This document shows, in pieces, positions 9,097 to 62,946 of a stretch of DNA of 64,000 nucleotides (positions are counted from its first letter, which is position 1; each line of letters starts with the position of its first letter). A program made the translations under genes and the position numbers. Source of the DNA: a virus (lineage: Duplodnaviria; Caudoviricetes); the IMG/VR virus record IMGVR_UViG_3300028591_000079, positions 64,001 to 128,000 of that record, one strand, 5' to 3'. The notes beneath the pieces are model-generated. The model worked only from the letters and a program-made list of their open reading frames with translations. It made no database searches and had not been told where the DNA came from.

Positions 9097-9164
9097 AATT
9101 CTACTCCTTTTAGTTCTAGTTGATAAAGCCCCAAGGTTTGTATTCTCTCAGGGCTTTTGTTTTC

Positions 9165-26720: not shown

Positions 26721-26762
26721 TTTTTCTTGACTTTGTAGTTCTATTAGATTATCATAATCATT

Positions 26763-26838
26763 GGGGTTGTAGCTCAGTTGGTAGAGCACCTGCTTTGCAA
26801 GCAGGGGGTCGTCAGTTCGAGTCTGATCAGCTCCACCA
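26763..26838 (+). tRNA. trnA: tRNA-Ala(TGC)
   Basis: cloverleaf, G3:U70, encoded CCA. Confidence 0.97.
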
Positions 26839-38650: not shown

Positions 38651-38733
38651 AAAAAACCGGTCATTTATTTTCGCTCCTAACTTGATTTATCACATATTTC
38701 GTAGTGAGCTTGGACATGACCGGAAGGACCATA
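38651..38733 (-). ncRNA. candidate small RNA
   Basis: late box upstream, 8-bp closing stem CCGGTCAT/ATGACCGG, T6 tail. Confidence 0.4.
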
Positions 38734-38814
38734 TTAGCTAGAACTATGATTTGAATATTTTTTTCTTTGTTTTGCATAATTAATTTTCACTCTATAATAA
38801 CATAGGAATCTAAT

Positions 38815-44631: not shown

Positions 44632-46137
44632 TTACTTCATTTTATCAACTATATCAAAGAACTCATGAACAGTTTTGCACTCAATTACGCCATTATTCTC
44701 CAAGGTCTTTTTTCTAGCTTTATAGTGTTTATTCATTACAGTGTTTACCTCTGAATCATTAAAGTCTATTATAAGAGCTATATTTTCTTTATTTTGTTTT
44801 TTTCTAGCTACTCGTCCTGTTTGTTGAATTATTTTTATTGCGCTTTGTCCACCAGTAAATAATACACCAGCCTGAAAAAGAGAAATATCTACACCTTCGT
44901 CCATAACTTGAGAGGCTAAAACAATATTATAATCAGAGTTTAGTGCATTTTTTATATCGTCTGTATTTCCTTTTTTTGTGTGTAGTTTTAGTTTTTCATC
45001 ATATTCGTGTATTTTTTCTCCGCCTTGTAAAAATAAACACTTGACCCCAGATTTTGTTAGTTCTTCCATTACTTTTAATCCATGGCCTTTTACTTCTCTA
45101 AACAGCACAAGAGTTTTTATATTATTTTTATTTAGATATTTTACCATTTCTATTCCGGCTTTATTTCTTGCTTTATTATATACAACAGATCTTCTATATT
45201 GAATAAAAAATGGTGTATTGGTCGGATAAAGAACAGGATAAGACTTATAGTTGATAAAATAAGAATAAGGTTGTGCCACATTATTTCCCGCGATTGAGTC
45301 TTGTAATGAAAATTCTATAGCTGGTTCCCCCAAAAGTCCTATCAAAGTCATATCATCAACATTTTTATATGGATCTTTTGGGTTTTTAAATGGCGTTGCT
45401 GTATATCCTACTAAATGCTTGAGATTTGGAGTAAAGAATAATACAGAAAAATGAGATGCAGATTGGAAGTGGGCGCATTCATCACATATTATAACCTCTA
45501 CATCTTCTAAAAACTTTAAATATTTCTCATCACGTTGTTTTAGCCTAATATAAGAAGTTTGAGATGATATAATAAGAATACGTTTGTTAAGATCTTCTAT
45601 GCTCATACTTATTTCATCTTCACTTATCCCCATACTAACAAATCTATCATAAATCTGTTTCAATATAAAATTTTGGTTGTTTATGATTAATGTTTTCTTC
45701 CTTCTCCATAATAAAGATAACAAAGTCATAGTAGAAGTTTTACCTGATGCTGTAGACGAAACAATCAAAGAAGCATATCTAGAAACAGAAGCCAACACTA
45801 AATCTATTTGATAATCTCTAACCTCAAAAGTTGGTAGTATTTGTTTTACCTTTCTTGCAACTTCTAACACATCTTCTTTTCTATAGATTTTTACTTGATC
45901 TCTTTTATGTTCTATCTCTATTCCCAAACTTTTACTAACATATTCACATAATCCAGTTGGAAATTTTATAGTCTCAATTCCGTTTATGTAAGAGTGTATG
46001 TACCAAAACCTAGTCTCTTTCCAACTCTTTCTTTCATAGTCATAATCAAATTTAGTTAATACTTTTTTAGCCCTTTCTATTATTTCAGGACTTTCATTGC
46101 TTATATAACTCCAAAGATTGTCAAATTTATATATCAT
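44632..46137 (-). CDS. uvsW: SF2 helicase, UvsW-like
   Basis: RDYQ, STASGKT, DECAH, TATP, EGVDI, QQTGRVAR. Confidence 0.85.
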   Translation of the reverse strand: MIYKFDNLWSYISNESPEIIERAKKVLTKFDYDYERKSWKETRFWYIHSYINGIETIKFPTGLCEYVSKSLGIEIEHKRDQVKIYRKEDVLEVARKVKQILPTFEVRDYQIDLVLASVSRYASLIVSSTASGKTSTMTLLSLLWRRKKTLIINNQNFILKQIYDRFVSMGISEDEISMSIEDLNKRILIISSQTSYIRLKQRDEKYLKFLEDVEVIICDECAHFQSASHFSVLFFTPNLKHLVGYTATPFKNPKDPYKNVDDMTLIGLLGEPAIEFSLQDSIAGNNVAQPYSYFINYKSYPVLYPTNTPFFIQYRRSVVYNKARNKAGIEMVKYLNKNNIKTLVLFREVKGHGLKVMEELTKSGVKCLFLQGGEKIHEYDEKLKLHTKKGNTDDIKNALNSDYNIVLASQVMDEGVDISLFQAGVLFTGGQSAIKIIQQTGRVARKKQNKENIALIIDFNDSEVNTVMNKHYKARKKTLENNGVIECKTVHEFFDIVDKMK

Positions 46138-46250
46138 GTCTTTTAATATACAATAGAACTAACAAGAAATCCACATTAAAATACTCAAATCCCAGTTCTA
46201 TAATTCAGAGTATTTAGTTTTAGTTCAAATATAAAAAAGATAATCCAAAT

Positions 46251-47432
46251 ATGACACAAGAAGTTAGACATACCCAAAGACCTGGCAACATAAATGAAGT
46301 ACTTGCAGCCGGTGAAATTGCATATTCTGATTCTGATACCATAAAAGTCGGAGATGGTAGTAGGACTTTTGCGGCATTGCCAGAACTATCATCAAACGAA
46401 TCTCTTGGCGACAACTCTACAATTATAGCAAATTCAGCAAAAAAAATACAAGCACACGGAACATTAAATAAAAACCCCAATGCATCCGGTAATTTAGCAA
46501 AGGTTTTTGATTGGATCGGCACAAACCAAGAATTCGTTGATCAAAATATAGCCACAGTACATCCAGATTGGTTATGCTTTGTTACAGATGATGTTAGTGG
46601 TACAATGAGTGGAGCATATACTAGAGATGAAATTGATGCGTTTTTGAACAATAAAGCTGATGGTATTGGTGCCGCCGTTATGACTTCTGGAGAACAAACA
46701 ATACAGGGTGGTAAATATTTTCTTAATAACGGAATACACTCAAAAAGCACAACAGTCGATTCAACACAAACACCAGAATCTACAGAATATTTATCAATGG
46801 TTATGGCTCACGATAAAAATGGGCAAAGAATTGGAAATTTAGAAATTTATCATAGAACAGATGGGGCAATTGGTTTAGGCTTAAATGCATCAGTTGGAAT
46901 AAACGGTACAAATAGTTATTCACCAGTACTTTCAACATGGATTAGTCAAGATGGCCAAACAAAATGGACAGAAGCTGGAACACATCCAACAAGTGTAACG
47001 GCAGATAATTATGAAATAGCAACAACAGGCCATGTTATAAATGTTTTAAAAGCAATTTATCCAGTAGGAGCAATATTTATAGGAACAACTTCTACATGTC
47101 CAATGGCTCAATTCTTTGGTACATGGGAATTAGTGGCAGCAGATCGTTCACTACAGGGGAGCTCAACAAATCATGCAGCCAATACAACCATAGCAGCCGG
47201 ATTACCTAATTTAAGCGGAAGCGTCAATGTAGGCATGTTTGGTGATCCAAGTGGAACCGGTGTATTTACTGGTGCGTCTGCTGGTTATAACTGGCCATTG
47301 AGAGGAACTTATACTCAGGGATATGGTGGAAATGTACCATTCGATGCATCAAATAGCAATTCAATTTATGGTAGTAGTAATACCGTTCAACCATCAGCCT
47401 ATGTAGTAAACGTTTGGAGAAGAACAGCGTAA
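46251..47432 (+). CDS. tail fibre protein
   Basis: Mtd_N-like start, HPDW module, YPVG...AGLPN...VWRRTA. Confidence 0.8.
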   Translation: MTQEVRHTQRPGNINEVLAAGEIAYSDSDTIKVGDGSRTFAALPELSSNESLGDNSTIIANSAKKIQAHGTLNKNPNASGNLAKVFDWIGTNQEFVDQNIATVHPDWLCFVTDDVSGTMSGAYTRDEIDAFLNNKADGIGAAVMTSGEQTIQGGKYFLNNGIHSKSTTVDSTQTPESTEYLSMVMAHDKNGQRIGNLEIYHRTDGAIGLGLNASVGINGTNSYSPVLSTWISQDGQTKWTEAGTHPTSVTADNYEIATTGHVINVLKAIYPVGAIFIGTTSTCPMAQFFGTWELVAADRSLQGSSTNHAANTTIAAGLPNLSGSVNVGMFGDPSGTGVFTGASAGYNWPLRGTYTQGYGGNVPFDASNSNSIYGSSNTVQPSAYVVNVWRRTA

Positions 47433-47443
47433 AAGGAAAATAA

Positions 47444-47830
47444 ATGTCTGTAGTAAAAAAGCAATATGCAAAAATTATAGATGAAACAACTCACGAAGTG
47501 CAAATTGGTGTTGGTTGTCCTGTAAGTTATTATATTGAAATTGGCATGACATGGATGGAAACAGAACTTGCATATAACAGTAAATGGTATGAAAAAGGAT
47601 ATGCACCGAAAGAACCTGATCCAACACCAAAAACAAGAGAAGAAGTAGAAAAAATACGTGAATCTCTATATAAAGAAAAAGTAGATCCAATAACTGCGCA
47701 CATACAAAGATTAAGAGATAAAGAGCAAACAGAAACGGTGGTGGTCGAAATAAAAAGACTGATCAACATAAGAGACTATACATATACACAAATACAAATA
47801 GAAAATCCGTATCCAGTGGAAGGAAAATAA
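47444..47830 (+). CDS. tail fibre assembly/chaperone-like protein
   Basis: follows a fibre gene; WYEKGYAP, RESLY...DP...NPYP. Confidence 0.6.
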   Translation: MSVVKKQYAKIIDETTHEVQIGVGCPVSYYIEIGMTWMETELAYNSKWYEKGYAPKEPDPTPKTREEVEKIRESLYKEKVDPITAHIQRLRDKEQTETVVVEIKRLINIRDYTYTQIQIENPYPVEGK

Positions 47831-47831
47831 A

Positions 47832-48419
47832 ATGAGTGTAAGACGTGGAAATGATATTATAGCTGGACTTCCAATTATAGATGGTAGTTTAAATACTTCA
47901 TCACAAAGACCTATTGCAAATGCCCCTGTTGCTTTGGCTATAAATAATTTAAACGACAGAATAGATACAATTGTTGGTGGGGATGTTTATACAAAAACTG
48001 AAGTTGATAATTTGATTGCTGGAGTTTTTGCAAATCTGTATCCCGTTGGAAGTTTATATTTGGGCACCCAAACAACATGCCCACTTACTACACTTATACC
48101 TGGTTCAACTTGGGAATTAGTATCGCAAGATAGAAGTATTCAAGGTGCGAGCACTAATCATGCAGCAGGCACAACAATAGAGGCAGGATTACCTAACATT
48201 ACAGGAATGTTTGCCTTACCTGCAACATATGGGTCAGCCAGTTCCTCAGGTGCATTAATAGCAAGTACTTCAGGAACAACAGGAAGCCCTAATAATATAA
48301 ATAAAGCCGGAGATTTACAAGTTGAGATAAATGCCTCTAATTCATCATCAATATATGGAAACTCAACTACTGTACAACCAGCAGCCTATGTAACAAATAT
48401 TTGGAGAAGAACAGCATAA
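47832..48419 (+). CDS. tail fibre protein, paralogue of 41840-42505
   Basis: MSVRRGNDIIAG; YPVGSLY...EAGLPNITG...IWRRTA. Confidence 0.8.
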   Translation: MSVRRGNDIIAGLPIIDGSLNTSSQRPIANAPVALAINNLNDRIDTIVGGDVYTKTEVDNLIAGVFANLYPVGSLYLGTQTTCPLTTLIPGSTWELVSQDRSIQGASTNHAAGTTIEAGLPNITGMFALPATYGSASSSGALIASTSGTTGSPNNINKAGDLQVEINASNSSSIYGNSTTVQPAAYVTNIWRRTA

Positions 48420-48697
48420 TGAAAACAATAATTCTCTATTCTCCGGTTACCAAGTCTGAATATCTTATATGTTTAGATCAAGTAATACATCTTCATGAAA
48501 TAACAAATAAAAGGTCTAAATATTTTGGTTGTATAAAGATGAGATTTGAAGATGGAAGTACTGAAATATTTAAGGCCAATTACGCAGATGTTATAGAGGC
48601 TTTTGTTGTACATACTTGGTTGGAAAGTGTATGGAACAGTATGGTTTGGTGGATAAAGAGTAAAAATTTGAAAAGAAAAGAGAGCAAAAAGAAATGA
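48419..48697 (+). CDS. hypothetical protein (start MKTII)
   Basis: TAATG overlap. Confidence 0.55.
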   Translation: MKTIILYSPVTKSEYLICLDQVIHLHEITNKRSKYFGCIKMRFEDGSTEIFKANYADVIEAFVVHTWLESVWNSMVWWIKSKNLKRKESKKK

Positions 48698-49674
48698 GTA
48701 TAAAGCAAGGTGGAGTTTTAATTGCAGGCGGCGGCAATGGTGGCGGACAAGCAGTGGTAAACATGGATAATATTACCATTACAAACAACGCCAATAATGA
48801 AATCCAAACTGTAGCAAAAATAAATCAAAATCAAGCTAATGGTGCTGAAGCTTATTTATTTGATTGGTGTGGAACTCTTGCTGAATATAACTCTCAGGCT
48901 ATTGCAACCACACACCCCGAATGGATTTGTTATATTACAGACGACAACTCTGGTTCAGGTGGTGATGAAACAGAACAAATTGTAACAGTAATATATAACA
49001 CAACGCCATATGCAAATATAAAAGCTGCTTATGATGAAGGTAAAATAATACTTTGTGTTTATAATAATGCAATATATTATGCTTCTTATTTTCTTCCTGG
49101 AACAACATCTTATATATATTTTTCTGCAATAAGATTTAGCTCGACAACAATATATGGCATAAGAGTTTCTTCATCTAATGTGTGGGCAACATACACAACA
49201 ACAGTTCAAAGTTACATAGGTGGTGCTGCATCAACAATAACAAGCTCAAATCTAACTACAAACAGAGCTCTTATTAGCAATTCATCTGGTAAAGTAGCAG
49301 TTAGCACAACAACATCTTCAGAATTAGAATTTTTAAGTGGGACAACTTCAAATATTCAAAACCAGCTAGACAATAAAGTTTCTAAAGGGTATGAAATAAT
49401 AGATTTTCAACTTCCAACATCTGCTAATTCTTATATGTGGTATAAAAAATACGCAAACGGATGGGTCGAACAGGGTGGTCTTAGTGCAACTGTTGGAACA
49501 ATAACTTTACCAGTAGAAATGAATAGTATTGAATATTCTCTTGTTGTTACACCAATTGGAACAGGGTCAAACCAAGACGTTCATGCAAATAAAGTAAGCG
49601 CAACCCAAATAGAAATTGGAAATGGTGCTGATTGGAGTATGGATTGGGAAGTAAAAGGCTTAGCGGCACAATAA
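48694..49674 (+). CDS. tail fibre protein with gp53-like C-terminus
   Basis: HPEW module, LSGTTSNIQNQL, WYKKYANGWVEQGG. Confidence 0.8.
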   Translation: MSIKQGGVLIAGGGNGGGQAVVNMDNITITNNANNEIQTVAKINQNQANGAEAYLFDWCGTLAEYNSQAIATTHPEWICYITDDNSGSGGDETEQIVTVIYNTTPYANIKAAYDEGKIILCVYNNAIYYASYFLPGTTSYIYFSAIRFSSTTIYGIRVSSSNVWATYTTTVQSYIGGAASTITSSNLTTNRALISNSSGKVAVSTTTSSELEFLSGTTSNIQNQLDNKVSKGYEIIDFQLPTSANSYMWYKKYANGWVEQGGLSATVGTITLPVEMNSIEYSLVVTPIGTGSNQDVHANKVSATQIEIGNGADWSMDWEVKGLAAQ

Positions 49675-49693
49675 TAATAAAGGAAAGTAAATT

Positions 49694-50137
49694 ATGTTTT
49701 TAGCTTATCAAGGGGATTTAATATCTTTTGTTGCAAACTCTAGAGAAGAAATAGAAAAAATATCACGTATAAAGTTTACAAAAATAGAAGAAACAAATGA
49801 GCCTGTAGAAATGGTGAGTGGTACGTATTATGTTGGAGAAGAAAATATAAAAGAAGCACAAGAAAAAGATGTAAGAAAATATCGCAACCATCTTTTAGAA
49901 ACAGAAATAGACCAAATAGTTTCAAATCCTTTGCGTTGGGCAGATCTCAGTAATTATGATCAGGAAAAATATAAAGAATACAGAAGATATTTATTAGACT
50001 ATACCGAAAAAGAAAATTGGTGGAAATCTAAACCTAAAACTTTTGATGAATATTGTGACGAAGATGAAGAAGTAACATTAGATCTTAGTGGCACCAGTTT
50101 AAGCAATGCAGAACCAGTGGATATAGAAGAAGAATAA
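49694..50137 (+). CDS. tail fibre assembly chaperone
   Basis: VRKYRNHLL...YRRYLLD. Confidence 0.7.
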   Translation: MFLAYQGDLISFVANSREEIEKISRIKFTKIEETNEPVEMVSGTYYVGEENIKEAQEKDVRKYRNHLLETEIDQIVSNPLRWADLSNYDQEKYKEYRRYLLDYTEKENWWKSKPKTFDEYCDEDEEVTLDLSGTSLSNAEPVDIEEE

Positions 50138-50149
50138 AAGGAAAATAAT

Positions 50150-51460
50150 ATGTCAATAAGAAAAGGTACATCAATCATAGCAGGAAATCTAGGACAAAAT
50201 ATAGATGATGCTCTTTCTTTGACTAGTACTAACCCTGTCCAAAATAAAGTAATAACAGAAGAGCTAGAAACAAAACTAGGACAATCTGATATCACAAACT
50301 GCATAACCAAAATTCCACAAGATATAAAATTAGAACTCAATGGTGGTGCACTAATACTAAAATCAGGTTCAAAATTTTATTATCCGAATGGACTAGATGG
50401 AACTACGCCAATTTTCAATTCTTTTACAACAGCATCTGATCTTACCTTAAGCGTTGGCGGAACGGGGTGGACAAACAAAGAACATGCTATACTCGTGCTA
50501 AATGATGGAACCTCTAGTGCTGGTTATGCTTGCCCAGATGATTTATATTCAGGAAGTAATCCTCCAACACTTTCTACTCAATATGCTTGTTGGTATGACA
50601 CTGGTAGCAATATTATAAGAAGAACAACTGATTCTGGATCTACTTGGACTTCTACACCATATTCTTTTCCGATTTGTATAGCTGTAAATACTGGCGGAAA
50701 TTGTGATAGTATATCTCAAATATTCAATGGATTTGGTTATGTTGGTTCAACAGTATTTGCATTACCAGGTGTAGAGGGTCTGATTCCAGATGGTAGAAAT
50801 GAAGATGGAAGTTTGAAAAATATCAGAGTGATCGTAAATAACGTTGTTATAGCAAACACCGATCAAAGGGGTAATGATACAGGATTGCTCAGTATTGACG
50901 GCGAAATAACATTTTGGGATACTGGTTCGTTGTTTACTGATTATTACCCAACCCCTGCTACTGGTTATTGGTGGCTTGTGTATGACACAAAGAAAAATAC
51001 ACTTTTTCAATCAAACGATGGCGGTGCATATTTTGAAGTTAGAAGAACAACATTTGGCAATTGGAGAAAAGAAGGAAATAAAATTACATCACTCATCTCA
51101 AAAATGCCATTCCATGCGGTTGATTACGATGATACAGAGTATATGGCACACCAAGCAATGCCAAGTAATAGGTATATAGATATTACGCCGGGGGCTTCTG
51201 GCACTATTTACAATATGCCGGCAGACGGATATTTAGATGTTGGTGCTACGCACCCTGATAATGCTGACTGGGTGAATATAGGTATTGACGTTTTGGATTC
51301 TAATAATAATTTCTTGTTCAATGTAGGTGGCACATATAATTTGAATAATCAGACATACTGGTTTGTTGTACCTGTGGCAAAAGATTTTAATGTTCGAGTG
51401 TTTAGTAATAGTTTTAGTATCACTAGATTAAGATTTATATATGCCCAAGGTGCTGTATAA
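50150..51460 (+). CDS. tail fibre/receptor-binding protein
   Basis: MSIRKGTSIIAG, STNPVQNKVIT, ITNCITKIPQDIKLEL, AMPS...PADGY. Confidence 0.78.
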   Translation: MSIRKGTSIIAGNLGQNIDDALSLTSTNPVQNKVITEELETKLGQSDITNCITKIPQDIKLELNGGALILKSGSKFYYPNGLDGTTPIFNSFTTASDLTLSVGGTGWTNKEHAILVLNDGTSSAGYACPDDLYSGSNPPTLSTQYACWYDTGSNIIRRTTDSGSTWTSTPYSFPICIAVNTGGNCDSISQIFNGFGYVGSTVFALPGVEGLIPDGRNEDGSLKNIRVIVNNVVIANTDQRGNDTGLLSIDGEITFWDTGSLFTDYYPTPATGYWWLVYDTKKNTLFQSNDGGAYFEVRRTTFGNWRKEGNKITSLISKMPFHAVDYDDTEYMAHQAMPSNRYIDITPGASGTIYNMPADGYLDVGATHPDNADWVNIGIDVLDSNNNFLFNVGGTYNLNNQTYWFVVPVAKDFNVRVFSNSFSITRLRFIYAQGAV

Positions 51461-51464
51461 TTTC

Positions 51465-51497
51465 AAGACTCAACTAAAAAATGGTTGAGTCTTTTTT
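51465..51497 (+). terminator. intrinsic terminator
   Basis: AAGACTCAAC/GTTGAGTCTT + T tract. Confidence 0.8.
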
Positions 51498-51601
51498 ATA
51501 ACCAACGATGAGTTCTATAGAGAGGACAAGGAAAAATCTTCTAATCTAGGCTTCTATTTGGGTCTAGTTTTTATTTTTTAACAGCAGGGAGATTTTTTGA
51601 T

Positions 51602-52564
51602 ATGAAATTATTTACCATTGAAGAACCTATTCGCAAAGGCAAGACTTATCAATATGCAGTATTTTCAGATTTACACATAGGAAGTAAAGAATTCGATGGA
51701 GAATCATTAAAAAGAGATTTAGAAAAGTGTAAAGATAATGATGCAAAAGTAATAATCAACGGCGACACTATGGATTTAATATTGATGCAAGATATAAAAA
51801 GAGCATCTGCATCAAGGATAAAACCAGATGAAGGACAAATTAATCGTTTTATAGAAGAAGCTGCAGAAAATCTAATACCATATGTTTCTCAATTATGTAT
51901 TATAGCTCAAGGTAATCACGAAACTGCAATGATAAAACATCACGGAGTAGATGTATTGGCTTGGTTGATTGATATACTAAACAGAGAAAAGAAAAATGGT
52001 AGAATACAAGAAGGTCATTATCAAAACTTTGTGCGTGTAAATTTTCTTGACCCTAAAAGAGGCTATAAATTAGGGGGAAAATATACAATTTATATGAGTC
52101 ATGGGCAAGGTAATAGCTCTGCTCCAGTTACTAAGGGTATGATTGACTTTAATCGTATCGCTGTAGCAAATGAGGCTGATTTATATCTAATGGGACATAA
52201 ACACAATCACATAGTAACAACAATACCTTCCGCCACAATAAATGAAGATGATGAAATAACTGTGAGAAACAGAATAGCAGTACAAACACCGTCTTATACA
52301 TATCAAATAAATACAGATAAAGATAATGCTTGGATAGATAATTTTTATGGCAAACAATCAGCTCCTGGTTTTGCAAGAATAGAATTAGAACCAAGACTAT
52401 CATCAAAAAAATTTTCTCTCCCTTATGATATACATCCTACAGTTTGGATAGATAGCAATGATTCAAAACCAGAAATGATATTTAATGGTAATGTTGTAAA
52501 AGCTGTAGAAATTCAAAAAGCAAAAGATAAAAAAATAATTGAGCAACTCCAAAGACAAAAATAG
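51602..52564 (+). CDS. calcineurin-like metallophosphoesterase
   Basis: SDLHIG, NGD, GNHE, SHG, GHKH. Confidence 0.9.
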   Translation: MKLFTIEEPIRKGKTYQYAVFSDLHIGSKEFDGESLKRDLEKCKDNDAKVIINGDTMDLILMQDIKRASASRIKPDEGQINRFIEEAAENLIPYVSQLCIIAQGNHETAMIKHHGVDVLAWLIDILNREKKNGRIQEGHYQNFVRVNFLDPKRGYKLGGKYTIYMSHGQGNSSAPVTKGMIDFNRIAVANEADLYLMGHKHNHIVTTIPSATINEDDEITVRNRIAVQTPSYTYQINTDKDNAWIDNFYGKQSAPGFARIELEPRLSSKKFSLPYDIHPTVWIDSNDSKPEMIFNGNVVKAVEIQKAKDKKIIEQLQRQK

Positions 52565-52579
52565 TTCTAATAAATGATA

Positions 52580-52666
52580 TACAAGAAAACCATTGAGAAA
52601 TTCGGGCCTCATAAGTTTTCACGGTCAGTTTCCCATCTATAGCCCGAATCTATAGGTGGGATTTTT
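52580..52666 (+). ncRNA. candidate kissing-loop small RNA
   Basis: two hairpins with 8-nt complementary loops, late box upstream, T tract. Confidence 0.6.
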
Positions 52667-52683
52667 ATAAAAGGAAACAAATA

Positions 52684-53502
52684 ATGAAAAAAATTCATGT
52701 ATTAACTGAAGAAATAAAAGAAATTTTTGATGATCAATTATTTGTGTTTACTGAAACAAACATAAAACTAACAGATTGGTATATACATCATAATGAAGAT
52801 TTTATAAATTATGTGTATGATAGTTTACAAGAATGGAGCAATGGCAATATAGATAATTGGAATATTGACGTTAATAGAGGTATATTTCTAAAAAATAAGT
52901 TTGAAAACACTCCAGATATAGAACTATCTCTTTTTAATGATATGGATTGGGCTGTTTATATGCCAAAAGAAGAAAAAATAATGTTATTTTTGTTGAACAG
53001 AGATTTTAAGATAAACAAAGAATTTATAAAAAGAAAAAATATGGTAAAACTTGTAATATTACATGAACTAACGCATCACTATGATAATATGTTTCTCAAA
53101 GGTAAAGGTATAAATATAGGTAGTAAACGAACAAAAATAAAACATCAAAACAATATAGAAAAAAACGCATACACAAAACAAATAATTCAACAAATGGAGG
53201 AAAATATTGTTGATACTATAAAAAAAATTAAATCAAAAATAATATCCAATGTAGAAACAAATTTTTCAACAATTTTACATTATTCATTAGGTGAAGTATT
53301 AAAAGAAAATCCAGAATTAAATAATTTTATGCAATCTTTAGATGATAAAACACTCAAAAAAGTATACAAAGAAATTGGAGAATATTTTAAAAATCGCATT
53401 GAAAAAGATTATAATTCATATGCATCCTTACCAAGTGCGATTTTTGACAAAATTAATTATAATGATCTACAAAAAACAAAACATAAAAACAGTTCTAAAT
53501 AA
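52684..53502 (+). CDS. zincin-like HEXXH protein
   Basis: ILHELTH...IEKNAY. Confidence 0.65.
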   Translation: MKKIHVLTEEIKEIFDDQLFVFTETNIKLTDWYIHHNEDFINYVYDSLQEWSNGNIDNWNIDVNRGIFLKNKFENTPDIELSLFNDMDWAVYMPKEEKIMLFLLNRDFKINKEFIKRKNMVKLVILHELTHHYDNMFLKGKGINIGSKRTKIKHQNNIEKNAYTKQIIQQMEENIVDTIKKIKSKIISNVETNFSTILHYSLGEVLKENPELNNFMQSLDDKTLKKVYKEIGEYFKNRIEKDYNSYASLPSAIFDKINYNDLQKTKHKNSSK

Positions 53503-53518
53503 GAAAGGAGTATAAAAT

Positions 53519-53833
53519 ATGTTCAAAAGACTATTTAAAAGAAAAAAGAAAGAGGCACAAAATCCGTTAGGTTATCTAAAAAAGAATTACACCAACGAGA
53601 TTACAATTCAAGACATAGACCATAAAGAAGTGCAATTCAAAATAAGAGATGTTGGTAATGATAGAACTTTTCTAATTATTACTGATCTAAAAACAAAAGA
53701 AGAGATGGTGTTTGATTTTGACTCTGCTATTGTTTTGAATGCTATTATTACTGATTATGTTGAAAATGGAAATCTAAATAAAGTAGAAGAAATTTTCAAT
53801 GAGAGTCAAGAAGAAGAACAACAAGGAGAATAA
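53519..53833 (+). CDS. hypothetical protein
   Basis: AAGGAG RBS. Confidence 0.7.
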   Translation: MFKRLFKRKKKEAQNPLGYLKKNYTNEITIQDIDHKEVQFKIRDVGNDRTFLIITDLKTKEEMVFDFDSAIVLNAIITDYVENGNLNKVEEIFNESQEEEQQGE

Positions 53834-53835
53834 TT

Positions 53836-54105
53836 ATGAGTTTAAAAAGTACACTATATAAAATGTTTGAATCAAATGAGGGCGGAAGTCTTTCATGTGC
53901 TAGAGTTATGACTTGGACCTGTGGTGGTATTGGTATGATTTTATTGATTTTACATTTCTTTGGTATTGGACAAAATGTAGATACTGCTTATACCTTATTG
54001 GGTGTAGGTTTTGGTGGAGGTATTACAAAGTCAATTACATCTCAGCCAAGCACAAGAGTACATGTAGATATTGAAGAAGAAGAAAAGGTGGAAACAAATG
54101 AATAA
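53836..54105 (+). CDS. two-TM membrane protein (holin-like)
   Basis: G..S..R motif followed by two hydrophobic segments. Confidence 0.6.
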   Translation: MSLKSTLYKMFESNEGGSLSCARVMTWTCGGIGMILLILHFFGIGQNVDTAYTLLGVGFGGGITKSITSQPSTRVHVDIEEEEKVETNE

Positions 54106-54460
54106 AAAACTAAAAAAATTACTTGAAGAATATTTGGTAGACTCAGATCGCATGGTTGATGAATATTATGATGAGTTTGGTGAATTTATTATTTGTACAG
54201 AATCTTTTACCAAACTAACAACAGTATTGAAAGAAGGTTTGGAGATTTATAACTTAATCATTACAGAAAAACTATACCAAAATGATGAAGATATACAAAA
54301 GCTTATGGGTCTAATCTGTGAAAAAAGCAGTAAATTAGAAATCAATGAAGAAAATGCTAAAAACCTAAACACTAAAAATGCTATTGAGGCTTGGTTGGAT
54401 CTTCAGTCTTATCTTCTTACTCTTGGTGTTATGATTTTAGGTAGTGAAGAAAACGAATAA
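54098..54460 (+). CDS. hypothetical protein
   Basis: overlap with upstream gene. Confidence 0.65.
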   Translation: MNKKLKKLLEEYLVDSDRMVDEYYDEFGEFIICTESFTKLTTVLKEGLEIYNLIITEKLYQNDEDIQKLMGLICEKSSKLEINEENAKNLNTKNAIEAWLDLQSYLLTLGVMILGSEENE

Positions 54461-54522
54461 TTTAATTTTGACTTTATTTTTTCTTCTAGTAATATAATTG
54501 TATCGTAAAAAAGGAGCGATAA

Positions 54523-54915
54523 ATGAAGAAAATATTATTAGGTGCTTTAGGTGCTGTTGTTATTGTTGGTGGTAGTTTGATTGCTTATAATCGCTATGAA
54601 AACAATAAAAGACCAGCGTGCAATAGTGAAGAAACAAATGAAGCGTTGATAGAGTTTGTTGATAAGGAATTTGGAAAAACGACTCTAACAATGGAAGGTT
54701 TTTCTATCAAAGATGTTACACAAAGACCAAGTAAAATCTCTGATAACACCAATGTTTGTACTGCAACTGCTTATATCAAATTTAGTTATTATGGTTATGC
54801 AGTTAGAGATGGTGAAATAAACATAACTTATACTACACAGAAAACATTGAATAATAAAGTAAAAGTAGATATTTATTCTGTTGGTAGTAAGGATCTGAAA
54901 AAACTAAACGACTAA
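54523..54915 (+). CDS. membrane-anchored/periplasmic protein
   Basis: N-terminal TM, two Cys; own sigma70-like promoter near 54468. Confidence 0.7.
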   Translation: MKKILLGALGAVVIVGGSLIAYNRYENNKRPACNSEETNEALIEFVDKEFGKTTLTMEGFSIKDVTQRPSKISDNTNVCTATAYIKFSYYGYAVRDGEINITYTTQKTLNNKVKVDIYSVGSKDLKKLND

Positions 54916-54978
54916 AACATAATTCCTCTTTGTTTTGTTGTATGTTACCCAGTTCTATATAAAAAAGGACTGGGTTTT

Positions 54979-55425
54979 ATGATTAAGCTAAAAACAACAT
55001 TAGGAAAAACAGGTAAAGCAAATTTTAAAAAGACCACAAATTACCTTTCTACACATGACATAACTTCAGAACATCAATTACAAAAAAGTTGCGTGTCTAT
55101 TTTACGGGCTCATAATTTTCTTTGCTTCACAACAGATGTCTTCAATGGTATAAGTTTTATCAAAGATCTAAAATCAAAGGCAATTTATAAACAACATATG
55201 ATAGCTATGGGCGCAACTCCTGGCCAACCAGATTTAATCATTATAGGCAAAGGAAGGGTAACGTTTGTAGAGTTCAAGTTTGGTAAAGGAAAAAAATCAG
55301 TAGAACAAATTTCTCAATGCAATCTTTTAGAATCTATGGGGTATGAAGTTTTAGAGTGGAGAAAATTATCTGATTGTCAAGACTGGATAGTAAAACAATT
55401 GAATTATAAGAAACAGGAAGAATAA
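54979..55425 (+). CDS. VRR-NUC domain nuclease
   Basis: SEHQLQ, GQPDL, FVEFK, SVEQ. Confidence 0.85.
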   Translation: MIKLKTTLGKTGKANFKKTTNYLSTHDITSEHQLQKSCVSILRAHNFLCFTTDVFNGISFIKDLKSKAIYKQHMIAMGATPGQPDLIIIGKGRVTFVEFKFGKGKKSVEQISQCNLLESMGYEVLEWRKLSDCQDWIVKQLNYKKQEE

Positions 55426-55427
55426 AT

Positions 55428-56444
55428 ATGATAGAAAGTGCAAAATCAGAAAGAGATGCATTAGTTGTTGCCGGAAAAATAACTGGCGACATTATCAATA
55501 TTTTGTCCAACTTATGCCAAAATAAAAACACCTCAGATAGACTTATTGAGCTTGAAAAATCAGGCATATGGGTTGATGGTTGTTTTTTTATTGAATTTAC
55601 TTATAAAAATAAAACAATATTACTAAAACTATCAAACAAAGATAATGAAAACGGAGATTATACAACACTAGAATTTAGTTTTGGATATTGTGGCACTAAA
55701 GATATGCCAATTCCAACGGTAAAAATAAAATGTCTAACTGTATCTAATAAAATTCTTGTGTGCGACATTCAAAACATAATAAAAAGAAATACATCACTGT
55801 TACATGAAATTGAACACGCACTATTGAATGAAAAATTACCATCAAAATTACAATTAACACCGCTAAAACTACCAACAACAAATAAAGAATATAAAACATA
55901 TGTAAAAAACCCAAAAGAATTAGATGCATACACAAAACAGATTTTATTGTGGATAGATCAAATATTAAACAATGAAAATATAAATATACAAACTTTTAAA
56001 AACACAACAAATATTCATAATTTTTTAGATTCTCACGGTTTTTATATTCACAGTAAACCAAACAATCAAAATTACAACATACAAACACTAAAATCATTAC
56101 AACAAAATTGGGATGAAAAAAACAATAAAAGAATACTAAATAAAATATATGAACAACTGAAATATTTATCTGAGCTTCATATGCTAAAAAAAGAAGAGTT
56201 GGATGATTTATATGACTATTATCTTTCACTTGGATTACTAAACATGGCAACATTAATCAAAACAGAATCAGAAAAAAGAAAAAACTTAGAAGAAACTACA
56301 CATATAACTTTTATGAAATGTGGTTATGATGAGTTGATAGATGACACTCTCAACGAAGCAATAAACAAACAAAGCACAAACGAAGAATTCTCAAAAACAT
56401 TAAATAAAAAACTAAGAGAATATTTTAGTGATTTTGATATATAA
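55428..56444 (+). CDS. zincin-like HEXXH protein
   Basis: LLHEIEH...NPKELDAY; related to 52684-53502. Confidence 0.65.
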   Translation: MIESAKSERDALVVAGKITGDIINILSNLCQNKNTSDRLIELEKSGIWVDGCFFIEFTYKNKTILLKLSNKDNENGDYTTLEFSFGYCGTKDMPIPTVKIKCLTVSNKILVCDIQNIIKRNTSLLHEIEHALLNEKLPSKLQLTPLKLPTTNKEYKTYVKNPKELDAYTKQILLWIDQILNNENINIQTFKNTTNIHNFLDSHGFYIHSKPNNQNYNIQTLKSLQQNWDEKNNKRILNKIYEQLKYLSELHMLKKEELDDLYDYYLSLGLLNMATLIKTESEKRKNLEETTHITFMKCGYDELIDDTLNEAINKQSTNEEFSKTLNKKLREYFSDFDI

Positions 56445-56459
56445 TATAAGGACTAAAAC

Positions 56460-56987
56460 ATGAAATGGGCACAACTCGTAAAGGGAGCAAATCTAGTACA
56501 AAATAATAACGTAGACCAATCAAATCACGTGTCTGTTACTAATATTGTTTATGCAGCCGGTGTTAAAACTCTTACATTTTATTTTACAATTAGAGGAAGC
56601 AAAGGAAGAAGTTTTGGTGCTATTATAACATTCCTTAGAGTAGAAGAAATAGAAGTGAACTCAAATGAAGAAGCAATGGAAGCGCTATCAAATCGCGAAA
56701 ATATGATGGTAGAAGATGCAGAGGGACATAAACATATAGTAGAAAAACCAAATCTAATGTATAACGATGTCCAATGCAGATGTTCTTGTGAAAGTTTTAG
56801 ATTCTCTTTTGCTTATGCCGATAGAAAAGAAAGAGCTATGGCAGGTGCGAACTTTCCAATATATCACAGAAAGACTCCGTTACCACCACTAGGAAGACCA
56901 AGAAGAAATCCAGAACAAATACCGGGAGTAGACAAACATCTTATAGTCGCAATGGATACTTTAGCTAGAGAAGGTTTAATAATATGA
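56460..56987 (+). CDS. SWIM-like protein
   Basis: CRCSCESF...RNP...GVDKHL. Confidence 0.7.
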   Translation: MKWAQLVKGANLVQNNNVDQSNHVSVTNIVYAAGVKTLTFYFTIRGSKGRSFGAIITFLRVEEIEVNSNEEAMEALSNRENMMVEDAEGHKHIVEKPNLMYNDVQCRCSCESFRFSFAYADRKERAMAGANFPIYHRKTPLPPLGRPRRNPEQIPGVDKHLIVAMDTLAREGLII

Positions 56988-57030
56988 TGATTTTGAGTTC
57001 TAGTCTATATAATTCAAGGTAAAAAATAAA

Positions 57031-57897
57031 ATGGCAATAAAAATACAATCTTCTCTTAATGAAATCGACGTGGAAATGGGCAATATACTACTAAAAGAAA
57101 TGAGAATTGCCGATACACGAACCATAGAAAAAACTCAAACACCTTTATGGGATAGCGATAATGTTATTTTAGTAGACGAACTTGAAATAGAAGAAATATT
57201 CCGTGCGTGGCTTATCAAAAATTCCAAAAAGAAAGTAGACGTTCAATATCCAATCTTAGCATACGCACCTAATGATATTGATGAAGTTTTCTACGGAACT
57301 GGCAATCGTGTGCAGCAATGGGAATTTGTAACAGAAACTAAAGATGAATCGTGGGCAGTAGGCGATCTTGTTTGGGTTATCGATGGCTTTTATAGAGGAG
57401 ACCAAGGAACGATTACAGAAATCAATCTAGAAAAGAAAACAGCCAAAGTCAATATGGGTGGCGATAATGTTTATGAATTTCCTTTTGATCAACTAAGACC
57501 AACAGGAGAAAAATTACCACAAAAATTCAAAGCAAAACAAATTATCACATCCTACGACTCCGTTATTCTGTGCGAACAAAAACAAGAAGCAAGATATTTT
57601 ATGAACAATTTTATTTTACGCTGCGCAGATGGACAAATATGGCACCCTTTCAATTCTGATATACTAAATGGTTCTGAACTTCATATCTTTACAGTCTTTG
57701 GAATTCCTAATATGAAAAAATACCCAACTTCAGACGCAAAACTAAAAGGTGCAGGTTATATCTATGGTGTTTCATTTAGGACTCAAGTTTGGGCTTATCT
57801 TACAGACTTCCCAGTTCCAAATGGCTTTATTGAACAAATTAGAGAAAATATTCATGTTGAAACAGATGGATTAGTACAAAAAATCGTCATCAACTAA
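57031..57897 (+). CDS. putative tail completion/neck protein with inserted KOW domain
   Basis: YPILAY motif, late-gene context; NusG-like KOW insert. Confidence 0.5.
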   Translation: MAIKIQSSLNEIDVEMGNILLKEMRIADTRTIEKTQTPLWDSDNVILVDELEIEEIFRAWLIKNSKKKVDVQYPILAYAPNDIDEVFYGTGNRVQQWEFVTETKDESWAVGDLVWVIDGFYRGDQGTITEINLEKKTAKVNMGGDNVYEFPFDQLRPTGEKLPQKFKAKQIITSYDSVILCEQKQEARYFMNNFILRCADGQIWHPFNSDILNGSELHIFTVFGIPNMKKYPTSDAKLKGAGYIYGVSFRTQVWAYLTDFPVPNGFIEQIRENIHVETDGLVQKIVIN

Positions 57898-57918
57898 TTC
57901 ATACAAAACATTAATTCT

Positions 57919-57956
57919 AAAATCTCACACCTTAATTATTTTCGTGAGATTTTTTT
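57919..57956 (+). terminator. intrinsic terminator
   Basis: AAAATCTCAC/GTGAGATTTT + T tract. Confidence 0.65.
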
Positions 57957-58064
57957 ATTTTGTTGTTAGTTCTATTTTATCAGAAGTACTAGTTTTTATC
58001 TAAATTATGAATCCTAGTCTTTGAGTATAACGTTAAACATAAATTTTATAAAAAAGGTATTATA

Positions 58065-59138
58065 ATGAAATATTTATCAAGATTCCGTGCACGTCAAGCA
58101 TTGGATAAATTGAAAGAATCAAAGGCTTGGATTGCTTCTAAGAAATTGGTTCTTGAAACCGAAGAAGGTGATTTGGAAATCGAAAAAGGTCAAGAAGTTG
58201 TACTTGGTGCAACAAAAGAAGGCAATGTTGCAATCAAGGACCCAACTGCAATTGTTGTTGTAACTGATGATGAATTGGCTTCAAAAATCGTTGATGCAAT
58301 GAAAAATGCAGAAGATTTGGGTGATGTTAAATTCTTAGACCGTCCAGCTTTGGATTCAGCATTAGATGGTGAAACAGTTGAAGATTTGGTTGCTGGATTG
58401 GCAGATGCAGAAGAAGATTCTGACGAAGTTGAAGTTGCAACAGTTGACGCAGAAGAAGACTCATCTGTTGAAGAAAAATGTGAAAAGATTGCTGAAAACG
58501 TAATTCCATTGACTGGTAAAGTTTTGGAATGTGAAGCTATCCAAATCGCAGAAGATGATGATGCACCAATTAATTTGGGTGATGTAACTGCAGACGCTGG
58601 TTGTGCAGAAGATGTTTTGTCTTATGATGACTTTACAGCAAAAGTTGCAGAATTCGGCGGATCAGTTCAACCAGGCGAAAAAGAAATTGCTCTAAATGCC
58701 GAAGGCAAGGTTGTTGGTTACTGGGATGCAGAAGCTAATACCGGTAAAGTATTCAACTGCGAATTTGATAATGCTGAAGATATGATGAATGCAAACACAG
58801 ATCCAGTCGCAGCAATGGGACCAGCAGAATTTGAAGCAGGTTTGGATGCTGATAAATTAGAATCTGTTGAAGAAGCATTGAAAACATATGAAGAATCAGC
58901 AAAATCAGCTAAAGATTTGTTTGCAATGACAGAATCCTTAGAAAAAGTTGGGTTAGAAGAAAGCGCAATTGCAACAGTTGCAGGTTCATTTGTTTCTCGC
59001 TCAATGAAAGAAGGCGTTGCAGTGTTCGATACCAAATTGGGTAAAACAGTTGCAAAATTCACAGAATCAGTTGATGCTAATAATTACATTGCAGAATCTG
59101 GTGAAGAATCTCGCTTTACAAAACGTTTCTTCAAATAA
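58065..59138 (+). CDS. acidic prohead core/scaffold-like protein
   Basis: E/D/A-rich, biased codon use, repeated (L/M/F/I)xES motifs. Confidence 0.55.
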   Translation: MKYLSRFRARQALDKLKESKAWIASKKLVLETEEGDLEIEKGQEVVLGATKEGNVAIKDPTAIVVVTDDELASKIVDAMKNAEDLGDVKFLDRPALDSALDGETVEDLVAGLADAEEDSDEVEVATVDAEEDSSVEEKCEKIAENVIPLTGKVLECEAIQIAEDDDAPINLGDVTADAGCAEDVLSYDDFTAKVAEFGGSVQPGEKEIALNAEGKVVGYWDAEANTGKVFNCEFDNAEDMMNANTDPVAAMGPAEFEAGLDADKLESVEEALKTYEESAKSAKDLFAMTESLEKVGLEESAIATVAGSFVSRSMKEGVAVFDTKLGKTVAKFTESVDANNYIAESGEESRFTKRFFK

Positions 59139-59163
59139 TATTGTAAGAAAATGTTATAAAATC

Positions 59164-59199
59164 AATCCTCCTATTATTTTGAGTAGGAGGATTTTTTTT
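59164..59199 (+). terminator. intrinsic terminator
   Basis: AATCCTCCTATT/AGTAGGAGGATT + T tract. Confidence 0.8.
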
Positions 59200-59297
59200 G
59201 AATTTTATAAAATATAATTAAAAACAATAAAAGTATGATTAAGTTTTTTTTAGTAGTTCTATAAATATGTAAAACTTTAGAGAGGAGCAAGCGTGAA

Positions 59298-59555
59298 ATG
59301 TATTTAGTACGTGAGGTTAAGAACGGATTTTTTGTAGATTATAAAGTAAAGGGACATTTGGTTGAATCATTTTTTGTTACGATTTCACCTAAGAAAGAGT
59401 GTTCCTGTAAATATTTTGCAGAGTCCCACAATCACTACAATCATTTTCACATCAATTTAGTAGAGCGTTGGATAAGGGATGGAAAACCGAAATCAGCGAT
59501 GTATGAAAAAACTAAAGATGGGAAGATAAGTGTACTATTTGAAGGGATAAAGTAA
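59298..59555 (+). CDS. small SWIM-like zinc-binding protein
   Basis: ECSCKYF...HFHI. Confidence 0.6.
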   Translation: MYLVREVKNGFFVDYKVKGHLVESFFVTISPKKECSCKYFAESHNHYNHFHINLVERWIRDGKPKSAMYEKTKDGKISVLFEGIK

Positions 59556-59696
59556 GATGGAAAAACAACCGCTAATCTATAAAGAATTTGAAGCTCTAAT
59601 GAAAAGGTATGAACATAGGAAAAAAAATAGAATTCATAAAGAGCACGTAAATCCATTTAAATATAAAAAAGTGTTTAATAACAAAGGAAAATAAAC

Positions 59697-60368
59697 ATGA
59701 GCAAAATGAGAGAAAGAGTGATGGCGATGCTAGAAGAAGTTCAAAGCTCAGCAGACATCATTGATACAAATACTACAAGCTGGGAAAGCAGAAAACTAGA
59801 TCGTGGCGAAGGTGCTTTTTCTACAGATGAGGTTACAGATTTAGGAAATATAGATCGTAATCGCATTAATCATGAACTACCAATGGATGTGTCAGATCAC
59901 AATGAAGATTTAGATCCTGAGAAAAAAGTTGTTGCAGGCATGAGCTCTATAATGATTGGTGTTTCTGAATCTAAATTTGCTCAAGATGTTAAAAAAGTAT
60001 TACAAGAACAAGATTGGGAAGGCGTAAAAGCTTGGAATCCTGATACTCGTATTGCCGCTTATCAAGTAAAACGTGCTTTAGATTCAGCATGCCCAGGTGT
60101 AAAAGGCATTCAAGTTGAAGAAGAATTGGTGGGAGAACAAGGTGAAGGTATAGCTTTTAATGTTACTGGTGGTGTAGATTGGGATCAATATGGCGAAGAT
60201 CAACAATTACCAAAAAAGCTAGATGTAGAAAATGTACAACTGGAATTAGTAGAAGAGCCTGAAGAATTTGATCACGGCATCGAAAATGTATCCAATAGAA
60301 AAAAACATTTATACAGAGTTGTAGGTACTAATTCTGTATTTCCTATTCCAACAGACGATGCTTTATAA
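59697..60368 (+). CDS. acidic virion/head-associated protein
   Basis: late context, acidic. Confidence 0.65.
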   Translation: MSKMRERVMAMLEEVQSSADIIDTNTTSWESRKLDRGEGAFSTDEVTDLGNIDRNRINHELPMDVSDHNEDLDPEKKVVAGMSSIMIGVSESKFAQDVKKVLQEQDWEGVKAWNPDTRIAAYQVKRALDSACPGVKGIQVEEELVGEQGEGIAFNVTGGVDWDQYGEDQQLPKKLDVENVQLELVEEPEEFDHGIENVSNRKKHLYRVVGTNSVFPIPTDDAL

Positions 60369-60381
60369 TAAGGATTGAGTA

Positions 60382-60783
60382 ATGGACGATTTCAATATAG
60401 AAGATTACAAAATTCACAATCCAGGCAACGATTTTGAAATGACTTATCGTGATGCTGTTGATCATTTGGAACGTGCTGTGAAATTTTTAGAAGATACACA
60501 CAAGAATCATTTTTTATTGGGTGTAGCAAGACAATTATTAGATGATGCAAAAGCTAAAAATCCCGATGATCAAGCTGATTTTGCTACTGTGAATTTTATT
60601 GCAGATTTTGGTAACCCAGAGATGATGGATAAACTAGCAGGTGAAGAAAAAACCGAAGATACTTGCGATTGGGTTAGAGCAAATAGTGTTTATAGCATGA
60701 GAGATGTTCCAGAATCTGCTCCTTCTAGATTTCGTGCATTATGTGAAGAAGAAATAGCAAAATTCAAAGATGTTCAGGGATAA
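60382..60783 (+). CDS. hypothetical late protein
   Basis: ORF packing. Confidence 0.7.
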   Translation: MDDFNIEDYKIHNPGNDFEMTYRDAVDHLERAVKFLEDTHKNHFLLGVARQLLDDAKAKNPDDQADFATVNFIADFGNPEMMDKLAGEEKTEDTCDWVRANSVYSMRDVPESAPSRFRALCEEEIAKFKDVQG

Positions 60784-61327
60784 GGTAGAACAGATTTTAA
60801 AAGAGTATGATGACTTCAAGCCTGGAGATATAGTCCGGCTTGATCTTTGGTTTGGAAGGATACTAGAACATATTCAACCAGATGTATATAAAGTTTCTGT
60901 TGCTACACCGGATGGAATTCAAACAAAAGAAATATCAAAAGACCAAATGCAATTATCTTATCCCATTGAAGTTGTTACGAATTGGAATGGGTGCGGAGGA
61001 AATACAACGGATATATTAACAGATGAAGAGTGGAATCAAATAAAAGCAAATCATCCGGAAATATATAAAGATTGTTTAAAAAAAGTAGCAATGAATACAA
61101 ATTATGGGAGCTTATTGGAAGACTGGATTTTTGAGTTCTTAATGAGTAATAAAAATCCAAAGCAAGGCAAACCAGGAAGCGTTATTGATGCCGTAAAAGA
61201 TGCAAACTTCGGACCAATAATGAAATATGTAAATCCTGGAGAACAATTACATGATGCGATAATAAGACTTTGGAAAGAAGCTTTATATGTATCAGACGAC
61301 AAGAGAAATGTTTTTATGTCATACTAA
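60770..61327 (+). CDS. hypothetical late protein with SH3/KOW-like N-domain
   Basis: FKPGDIVRL...GRI. Confidence 0.6.
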   Translation: MFRDKVEQILKEYDDFKPGDIVRLDLWFGRILEHIQPDVYKVSVATPDGIQTKEISKDQMQLSYPIEVVTNWNGCGGNTTDILTDEEWNQIKANHPEIYKDCLKKVAMNTNYGSLLEDWIFEFLMSNKNPKQGKPGSVIDAVKDANFGPIMKYVNPGEQLHDAIIRLWKEALYVSDDKRNVFMSY

Positions 61328-61339
61328 AGGAAAATAATA

Positions 61340-62086: not shown

Positions 62087-62098
62087 GGAAGTACAACT

Positions 62099-62863: not shown

Positions 62864-62902
62864 AACTCTATTTAGAACAACAAATAATCAAAAAATATCG
62901 TG

Positions 62903-62910
62903 AGTTCTAT
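62903..62910 (+). promoter_or_regulatory. putative late promoter box AGTTCTAT (one of about 15)
   Basis: recurs upstream of late operons, always co-oriented. Confidence 0.65.
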
Positions 62911-62946
62911 AGATAAGAGTTATAAAACAAAATAAGGATTTATAAA

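Follow-up and report, generated by a model that had tools for sequence, protein, structure and literature searches.

Does the short gap behind a metallophosphoesterase gene of a rumen phage encode an RNA whose two hairpins are selected to pair with each other through their loops, and, if so, what would such a contact do? The question is raised by a 119-nucleotide (nt) gap separating two plus-strand genes in a stretch of 64,000 nucleotides, hereafter the window, which comprises bases 64001-128000 of the virus record IMGVR_UViG_3300028591_000079; positions below are those of the window unless the genome is named. A sequence-only reading of this stretch had described a promoter-like box, two hairpins with perfectly complementary loops of which eight nucleotides match, and a T tract, and all of these features were found again in their places. 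It had taken them for a separate small RNA of about 90 nt that folds by an intramolecular kiss or oligomerises, or else for an attenuator of the downstream HEXXH gene. The parts of the element, followed through six sequences (the window and five relatives), are these:

52563-52569, plus strand: promoter-like box AGTTCTA, overlapping the TAG stop codon of the upstream gene
52571-52584, plus strand: A-rich spacer and probable 5' tail, variable in sequence and 13-23 nt long in the relatives
52585-52620, plus strand: hairpin 1, with 13 stacked layers made of 6 base pairs (bp), a 3x3 internal loop and 4 bp, as given by minimum free energy (MFE) folding and RNAalifold
52600-52607, plus strand: loop-1 pairing segment AUUCGGGC, partner of 52642-52649
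52621-52630, plus strand: single-stranded linker of 9-10 nt, its length kept in all six sequences and its letters free except for the 3' AGUU
52631-52661, plus strand: hairpin 2, predicted intrinsic terminator hairpin of 11-12 bp with the loop GCCCGAAUC, as given by the terminator scan and folding
52642-52649, plus strand: loop-2 pairing segment GCCCGAAU, exact reverse complement of 52600-52607
52662-52666, plus strand: terminator U tract and probable 3' end of the RNA, with GGGATTTTTAT invariant in all six sequences

On the DNA, the 8-mer AGTTCTAA occupies 52563-52570. Hairpin 1 consists of GAAAAC/GTTTTC plus TGAG/CTCA around the loop AAATTCGGGC, and hairpin 2 of the arms TCCCATCTATA/TATAGGTGGGA around the loop GCCCGAATC, followed by five T residues. 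The segments ATTCGGGC (52600-52607) and GCCCGAAT (52642-52649) are exact reverse complements of each other and lie in loops of 10 nt (hairpin 1, AAAUUCGGGC) and 9 nt (hairpin 2). Both hairpins are returned by the MFE fold, for the single sequence and for each of the six, and by the RNAalifold consensus; the folding z-score of -1.6 is unremarkable, which is usual for a short, A/T-rich RNA. Hairpin 2, which starts 67 nt past the upstream stop codon, has 12 pairs, five of them G-C, before TTTTT, and its energy ranges from -15.9 kcal/mol in the window to -16.5 kcal/mol across the sequences. It is the top-ranked terminator-like site of the scan in 45000-64000 and, being a G+C-containing stem-loop with a U tract behind a gene on the same strand, has the predicted make-up of an intrinsic (Rho-independent) terminator.

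Taken in one genome alone, the loop complementarity is suggestive. A scan for 8-nt complements shared by two loops no longer than 12 nt, with 9 or more pairs closing each loop, returned exactly one case in the 231-kb genome, the present element, and two cases in total in 15 Markov-simulated genomes (about 0.13 per genome). The only other candidates in the genome, with 7-nt loop complements, were A/T-rich ones inside coding regions. A covariance model of the element detected no second copy in the 231-kb genome, where the loop 8-mers recur at chance frequency only and the invariant 19-mer at 52627-52645 has no copy or complement at up to four mismatches. No targets for the conserved loops were found elsewhere in the phage genome. 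The 12-mer ATAGATTCGGGC at 14653-14664, in the mRNA of the minus-strand gene 13974-15206, complements loop 2 together with the start of the 3' arm, which is within chance.

A search for relatives anchored on the flanking genes yielded one viral contig and 66 metagenomic loci. Exact-pattern scans of viral and genome contigs yielded just one additional contig, and a protein-anchored scan of genome contigs yielded no further relative. In five distinct metagenomic relatives the element stands directly after the metallophosphoesterase gene; their flanking protein is 99% (L005), 84% (L008), 83% (L010), 83% (L006) and 78% (L007, the same as L002) identical to that of the window. It is absent from relatives in which this identity is 67% or less, and the covariance model revealed no additional copy in the 66 loci, including relatives 35-67% identical in the flanking gene. 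The alignment holds six sequences from one small clade in 82 columns with two single-base gaps, and omits ten further homologues of the flanking gene (P0001-P0009, 80-86%, and P0010, 78%, probably of the L007 lineage).

Counted over the whole pseudoknot, 94.3% of the alignment cells are paired and six pairs are altered on both sides. None of 500 shuffles matched the observed pairing values, and sliding the partners by 1-3 columns lowered pairing to 28-50%. In hairpin 1, five of the 13 pairs are altered on both sides, and its arms are 54-69% identical between lineages, with the pairs nonetheless retained; four sequences have it as 6 + 4 bp with the 3x3 internal loop, and in L010 and L006 it is rebuilt as 12-13 continuous pairs. 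Hairpin 2 is fully paired in all six sequences, its only changes being from U-A to U.G. Together with its flank it is 93-100% identical between lineages, against 60-68% at third codon positions of the adjacent gene and 17-67% in linker columns 37-42.

The loop complementarity, on which the sequence-only reading had staked its proposal, is conserved in the homologous loci, with all eight positions paired in all six sequences. Column pair 19/62 is C-G in four of them and A-U in L006 and L007, whose loops read AUUAGGGC with GCCCUAAU, that is, the C-G to A-U change is matched on both sides. In L005, column pair 23/58 is a U.G wobble. The matched loops have duplex energies of -13.9, -12.5 and -12.2 kcal/mol, and mixed types one of -8.3 kcal/mol, a loss of about 5 kcal/mol. 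One-sided changes are all G.U when read on the plus strand (11 cells, versus 3 for the minus strand), and the selected structure is therefore the plus-strand RNA rather than a DNA cruciform or an antisense RNA; the G.U pattern gives no sign of minus-strand transcription.

L006 resembles L010 in hairpin 1 type and gene order, and L007 resembles the window in both, which may indicate that the A-U loop type arose twice or that recombination took place. The flanking genes on either side give star-like, mosaic trees that do not reject a single A-U origin (p-AU 0.32 and 0.29), and the secure compensatory events in the loop helix are counted as one. By a rough estimate, the chance of a matched change, given one change per loop, is about 0.04. 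The mosaic of L005-L010 points to frequent recombination in this phage clade; L005, for instance, shares 97% identity with the window across the metallophosphoesterase gene and only 89% downstream, where it groups with L008. With its loop complementarity retained through a compensatory change, the element would belong to the kissing-loop pseudoknots, and the complementarity, its conservation and the covariation among the relatives make it very probable that the loop pairing is a selected feature of an RNA.

Whether this RNA has its own start depends on the box. AGTTCTA occurs in 33 of 295 upstream regions (80 nt before gene starts, with gene calls that are crude, namely the longest ATG-initiated open reading frames, ORFs), against 2.9 expected, an 11-fold excess. 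AGTTCTAW is found 18 times in the window against 6.6 expected, a count reached in none of 100 shuffles, and the exact 8-mer AGTTCTAA shows no enrichment (5 found, 3.8 expected). The box lies 22-67 nt before the ATG, with A at -1 in 88% and T/A-rich positions after it. It had been called a late box; the recurrent upstream motif is borne out, and the word late is unproven, the box preceding the tail sheath gene and also the helicase gene. At 26737-26763 it stands 19 nt before tRNA-Ala, the first gene of a tRNA cluster with six matches by Rfam and four by ARAGORN, and seems to drive RNA genes besides protein genes. Searches of the phage genome for sigma-70 region 2 (PF04542) and RNA_pol_Rpb2_6 (PF00562) gave no match; the search with T7-like RNA_pol (PF00940) is uninformative, since the control genomes likewise had none.

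The box precedes the element in all six sequences, in L010 separately from the stop codon. Because it has been retained in every lineage despite neutral divergence, the element is most likely transcribed from its own start, which the box-to-ATG distances would place, as we infer, at about 52576-52582. Box-to-terminator units that contain no gene recur in the window at 9112-9165 (plus), 38651-38745 (minus) and 51511 (plus), and in the genome at 168554-168655; none of these other units has complementary loops. A separate RNA of about 90 nt, as had been proposed, fits these units and the box in all six sequences. A small peptide from the 22-codon ORF that starts at 52575 was rejected, since this ORF is present in the window sequence only and is not conserved; the spacers of L005 and L008 have no ATG.

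The preferred reading, given a probability of about 0.45 as a whole mechanism, is that the element encodes a promoter-to-terminator RNA with an intramolecular kissing-loop pseudoknot that tunes termination and the stability of the RNA end. From the box, an RNA of a predicted 85-95 nt would be made, with hairpin 1 beginning about 14 nt past the box and hairpin 2, which would also end the metallophosphoesterase mRNA, following 10 nt after hairpin 1. Hairpin 1 would fold before hairpin 2, and the terminator loop, on leaving the polymerase, would be captured by the hairpin 1 loop through 7-8 nt. This capture would pre-close the terminator loop and lock the hairpins side by side, so that the kiss would fix the termination efficiency at 52666 and hence the run-on into the next gene (the promoter-less HEXXH gene where present), and a compact, nuclease-resistant RNA end would remain. 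The transcript ends, the intramolecular pairing and the direction of the effect on termination are the parts of this mechanism that we infer.

In each of the six sequences, a nested fold forced to include the loop-loop helix loses 8-17 kcal/mol against the two-hairpin fold, and loop pairing must therefore overlie two formed hairpins. A classical terminator/antiterminator switch was rejected on these fold energies, and both stems covary. As to geometry, loop 1 has three nucleotides to spare, AA at its 5' side and C at its 3' side, and with this slack hairpin 1 could bend back along the kissing helix and hairpin 2. In such a form, A-form dimensions suggest that the stem bases would come within 30 Å of each other, a distance that the 9-10-nt linker would bridge with ease. 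If the fold is sterically possible, intramolecular pairing is kinetically favoured.

Its relation to the next gene bears on what the pairing could control, and involves three neighbouring features:

51602-52564, plus strand: upstream gene, calcineurin-like metallophosphoesterase (phrog_7339, 1e-19; PF00149, 3.5e-6)
52684-53502, plus strand: HEXXH gene of 272 amino acids from the ORF list, with no family match and no box of its own
53491-53497, plus strand: second AGTTCTA box, for the next gene at 53519-53833

The metallophosphoesterase gene precedes the element in all six sequences, and its mRNA would share the terminator of the element as its end. The HEXXH gene, whose motif is HELTH at residues 127-131, is found in the window, L005 and L007 and missing from L006, L008 and L010, where the terminator is followed by about 20 nt and then by the second box and the homologue of 53519-53833. 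For these close relatives it amounts to a clean gene-sized insertion or deletion between the T tract of the terminator and the next box, which lies within the last codons of the HEXXH gene. Having no box of its own, the gene would depend, in the window, L005 and L007, on transcription that passes hairpin 2, and the element may gate it where it is present. The box, both hairpins and the loops are retained in the relatives that have no HEXXH gene, and the element is therefore not a device specific to it. The proposal of an attenuator for the HEXXH gene is weakened by these three of the six sequences, which keep the element unchanged without the gene and in which the next gene has its own box.

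Several points weigh against the intramolecular, termination-tuning mechanism. Since the next gene has its own box in three relatives, the gating of read-through cannot be the whole function in these. A straight coaxial stack (13 + 7-8 + 11-12, about 32 layers and 87 Å) is not closable by a linker of 10 nt, so that the intramolecular form would have to be sharply folded; a closed dimer built from two parallel rods is just as possible, and steric considerations favour neither. The A-U loop type may derive from a single event, in an alignment of six sequences from one clade. The conservation of the hairpin 2 stem, above all in the invariant 19 nt at 52627-52645, exceeds what pairing needs and is not accounted for by this mechanism. 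Lastly, the start, the end and the expression of the transcript are all deduced from the DNA.

The same contact could be made between molecules, with loop 1 of one copy pairing with loop 2 of another to give closed dimers (the two parallel rods, of 32 layers each), rings or chains. Such a self-associating RNA is doubtful, as is the further idea that the C-G and A-U loop types serve as lineage-specific addresses that separate the RNAs of co-infecting relatives. The loops are mutually complementary and not palindromic, as in the packaging RNAs (pRNAs) of the phi29 family (PMC4201828), and mixed loop types pair more weakly by the 5 kcal/mol given above. Loop 2 has at most one spare nucleotide, which on geometric grounds favours a coaxial kissing helix, that is, the straight form that the linker cannot close within one molecule. 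The box of the element also appears to drive the RNA in genomes that lack a promoter-less gene behind it. Against this stand the kinetic advantage that intramolecular fold-back would have at cellular RNA concentrations, the lack of an evident role for an RNA oligomer in a phage with a tail-sheath gene, and the fact that six sequences contain two loop types only.

Natural RNA-only oligomers are held together partly by kissing loops, and include phage-associated and short RNAs (PMC12286853; bioRxiv 10.64898/2026.07.01.735769). ROOL, GOLLD and OLE are large, ornate homo-oligomers made of RNA only and are often associated with phages or the rumen (PMC12286853), and copies of short assembling RNAs, such as manA and EGFOA, bind one another (bioRxiv 10.64898/2026.07.01.735769). 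The element does not match the sequence families of these short RNAs, and its oligomerisation is only possible.

The comparison with phi29 pRNA that had been drawn for the element is no more than an analogy: both are phage small RNAs with two complementary, non-palindromic loops whose letters vary between related phages (PMC4201828). The pRNAs of the phi29 family (RF00044) are 120-174 nt long, have a three-way junction and an A-helix formed by the 5' and 3' ends, and associate by an intermolecular pairing of about 4 nt on the portal of small phi29-like podoviruses (PMC4201828). In contrast, the present element has two independent hairpins with a single-stranded joint of 10 nt and neither a closing helix nor a three-way junction. 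Its complement is of 7-8 bp, hairpin 2 is a terminator, and the phage has a genome of 231 kb and a tail-sheath gene. No Rfam family reached its gathering threshold anywhere in the window, and 52540-52700 matched none at E values of up to 10; with no match to RF00044, the element is, as judged by its sequence, not a pRNA.

A regulatory contact in trans is unlikely. By this account, the terminated RNA would kiss its own leader in nascent copies, or else the upstream mRNA at its 3' end, and thereby alter termination or decay. The idea is modelled on P4 CI RNA and on pT181/pIP501 attenuation, with the difference that here the sense and antisense loops share one transcript. In P4 CI RNA (seqB with seqA/seqC), P1/P7 c4 RNA, pT181/pIP501 antisense attenuation and the terminator loops of pAD1 par RNA I/RNA II, short stable RNAs use loop contacts, at times those of terminator loops, to recognise complementary stretches in transcripts of the same locus. 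Systems of this type rely either on RNA processing or on a counter-transcript, and in addition have a separate target and an alternative fold; the contact alters termination. In the element, by comparison, both partners lie 42 nt apart within one 82-nt module. Both sides of a 7-8-bp kissing pair belong to it, one being in the terminator loop, all six sequences retain its box, and in three genomes the HEXXH gene lacks a promoter-like box of its own, all of which would suit such feedback. Against it, no processing site is apparent, every alternative fold is too unstable for a switch triggered by the kiss, and the downstream operon always has its own box. The present evidence does not separate feedback of this kind from pairing within one molecule.

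It is likewise unlikely that the locus is an ordinary 3' end, in which hairpin 2 terminates the metallophosphoesterase mRNA, hairpin 1 has a stabilising role, and the two loops are conserved separately, for example for protein binding, so that their complementarity is incidental. A textbook intrinsic terminator does lie right behind the gene, the frequency of chance cases in a single genome is not negligible, and both loops are highly conserved, which alone keeps most of the complementarity. On the other hand, the sole substitution in loop 2 is exactly matched in loop 1 of the same two sequences, L006 and L007, which differ in hairpin 1 type and gene order, and the box before the element is retained even where it serves no gene.

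An 8-bp inverted repeat bound as DNA by a dimeric protein, with the matched change following a change in that protein, is highly improbable: both halves do change identically, as expected of a co-evolving dimer site, and lie 42 bp apart from centre to centre, i.e. four helical turns and on one face of the helix, but they fall exactly in the loops of two hairpins with covarying stems, the 11 plus-strand G.U cells would be A-C mismatches on the other strand and are meaningless for double-stranded DNA, the spacing is 41 bp in L006, and a 34-bp spacer is unusual for an operator.

Pairing between the apical loops of neighbouring hairpins is familiar from the X/Y K-domain of the enterovirus 3' untranslated region (UTR) and from L5-L13 of the cobalamin riboswitch. 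As in these, two adjacent hairpins of the element would form one tertiary unit through their apical loops. The K-domain is a replication origin of RNA viruses and L5-L13 provides ligand-dependent masking of a ribosome-binding site, with no terminator loop in either. Unlike the tandem-hairpin riboswitch guanidine-II (mini-ykkC), to which it has no Rfam match, the element has no ACGR tetraloop. The readings as a tRNA T-arm mimic, a CRISPR-repeat mimic and a T7 class II terminator signal were dropped, the likeness being partial.

In its arrangement the element is closest to small RNAs derived from 3' UTRs. Those of Type I, such as DapZ and MicL, have their own promoter at the end of a coding region and a terminator in common with the mRNA (PMC9438474); similarly, the box of the element overlaps the upstream stop codon, and the predicted short RNA and the mRNA would end at one terminator. 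Unlike those RNAs, which have a conserved single-stranded seed for mRNAs, its only conserved exposed letters are the two self-matching loops. The zipper-type attenuator cATT of pLS20 is formed by stem arms that pair into a mutually exclusive antiterminator, which forms by default (PMC13401043). It shares with the element a promoter-proximal leader in which an upstream hairpin is complementary to part of a downstream intrinsic terminator, including the loop, whereas here the loops alone match and both stems covary. Terminator loops with regulatory action are known from small RNAs of E. coli (PMC11979758). The searchable RNA catalogues and full-text literature searching yielded no short promoter-to-terminator RNA with an upstream hairpin loop under selection to match the terminator loop.

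Each building block, be it hairpin, terminator or kissing loop, is familiar, and it is their combination in a short promoter-to-terminator RNA that those catalogues lack. If the kiss sets termination efficiency, the element would be a compact transcription gate without a classical alternative fold. If the contact is intermolecular, it would be a new natural self-recognising RNA, and self-assembly would bring a pRNA-like principle into an unrelated jumbo phage by means of two hairpins, one of which is also a terminator. The natural compensatory pair at 52603/52646, C-G or A-U, makes the idea directly testable.

The source record is an uncultured rumen jumbo phage of 231,064 bases with a G+C content of 32% and a completeness of 96% as estimated by CheckV. 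Tail and tail-sheath genes lie in the same region as the element, the tail-sheath gene at 62947. Positions 51600-53500 gave no DNA match among GenBank phage records, and the helicase is at most 28% identical to that of any cultured phage, so that there is no annotated relative.

Other units with the box have features of their own. In the genome unit at 168554, outside the window, the terminator loop is CCUCC-rich and resembles an anti-Shine-Dalgarno sequence. At 51511-51580 of the window, a box, a weak hairpin and a terminator immediately precede the metallophosphoesterase gene, for which this is the only box. The terminator hairpin of this unit, TCTAATCTAGGC...GGGTCTAG with its T run, hardly varies among L005, L006 and L007, the changes in L007 being matched ones, and these features suggest either a leader or attenuator or a further small RNA. 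In two loci in which the flanking gene is about 40% identical (L012 at 1134-1200 and L014 at 3921-3980), the 3' arm of a terminator-like hairpin behind that gene runs directly into a GTTCTAT box, and the box motif is therefore used far beyond the clade that carries the element.

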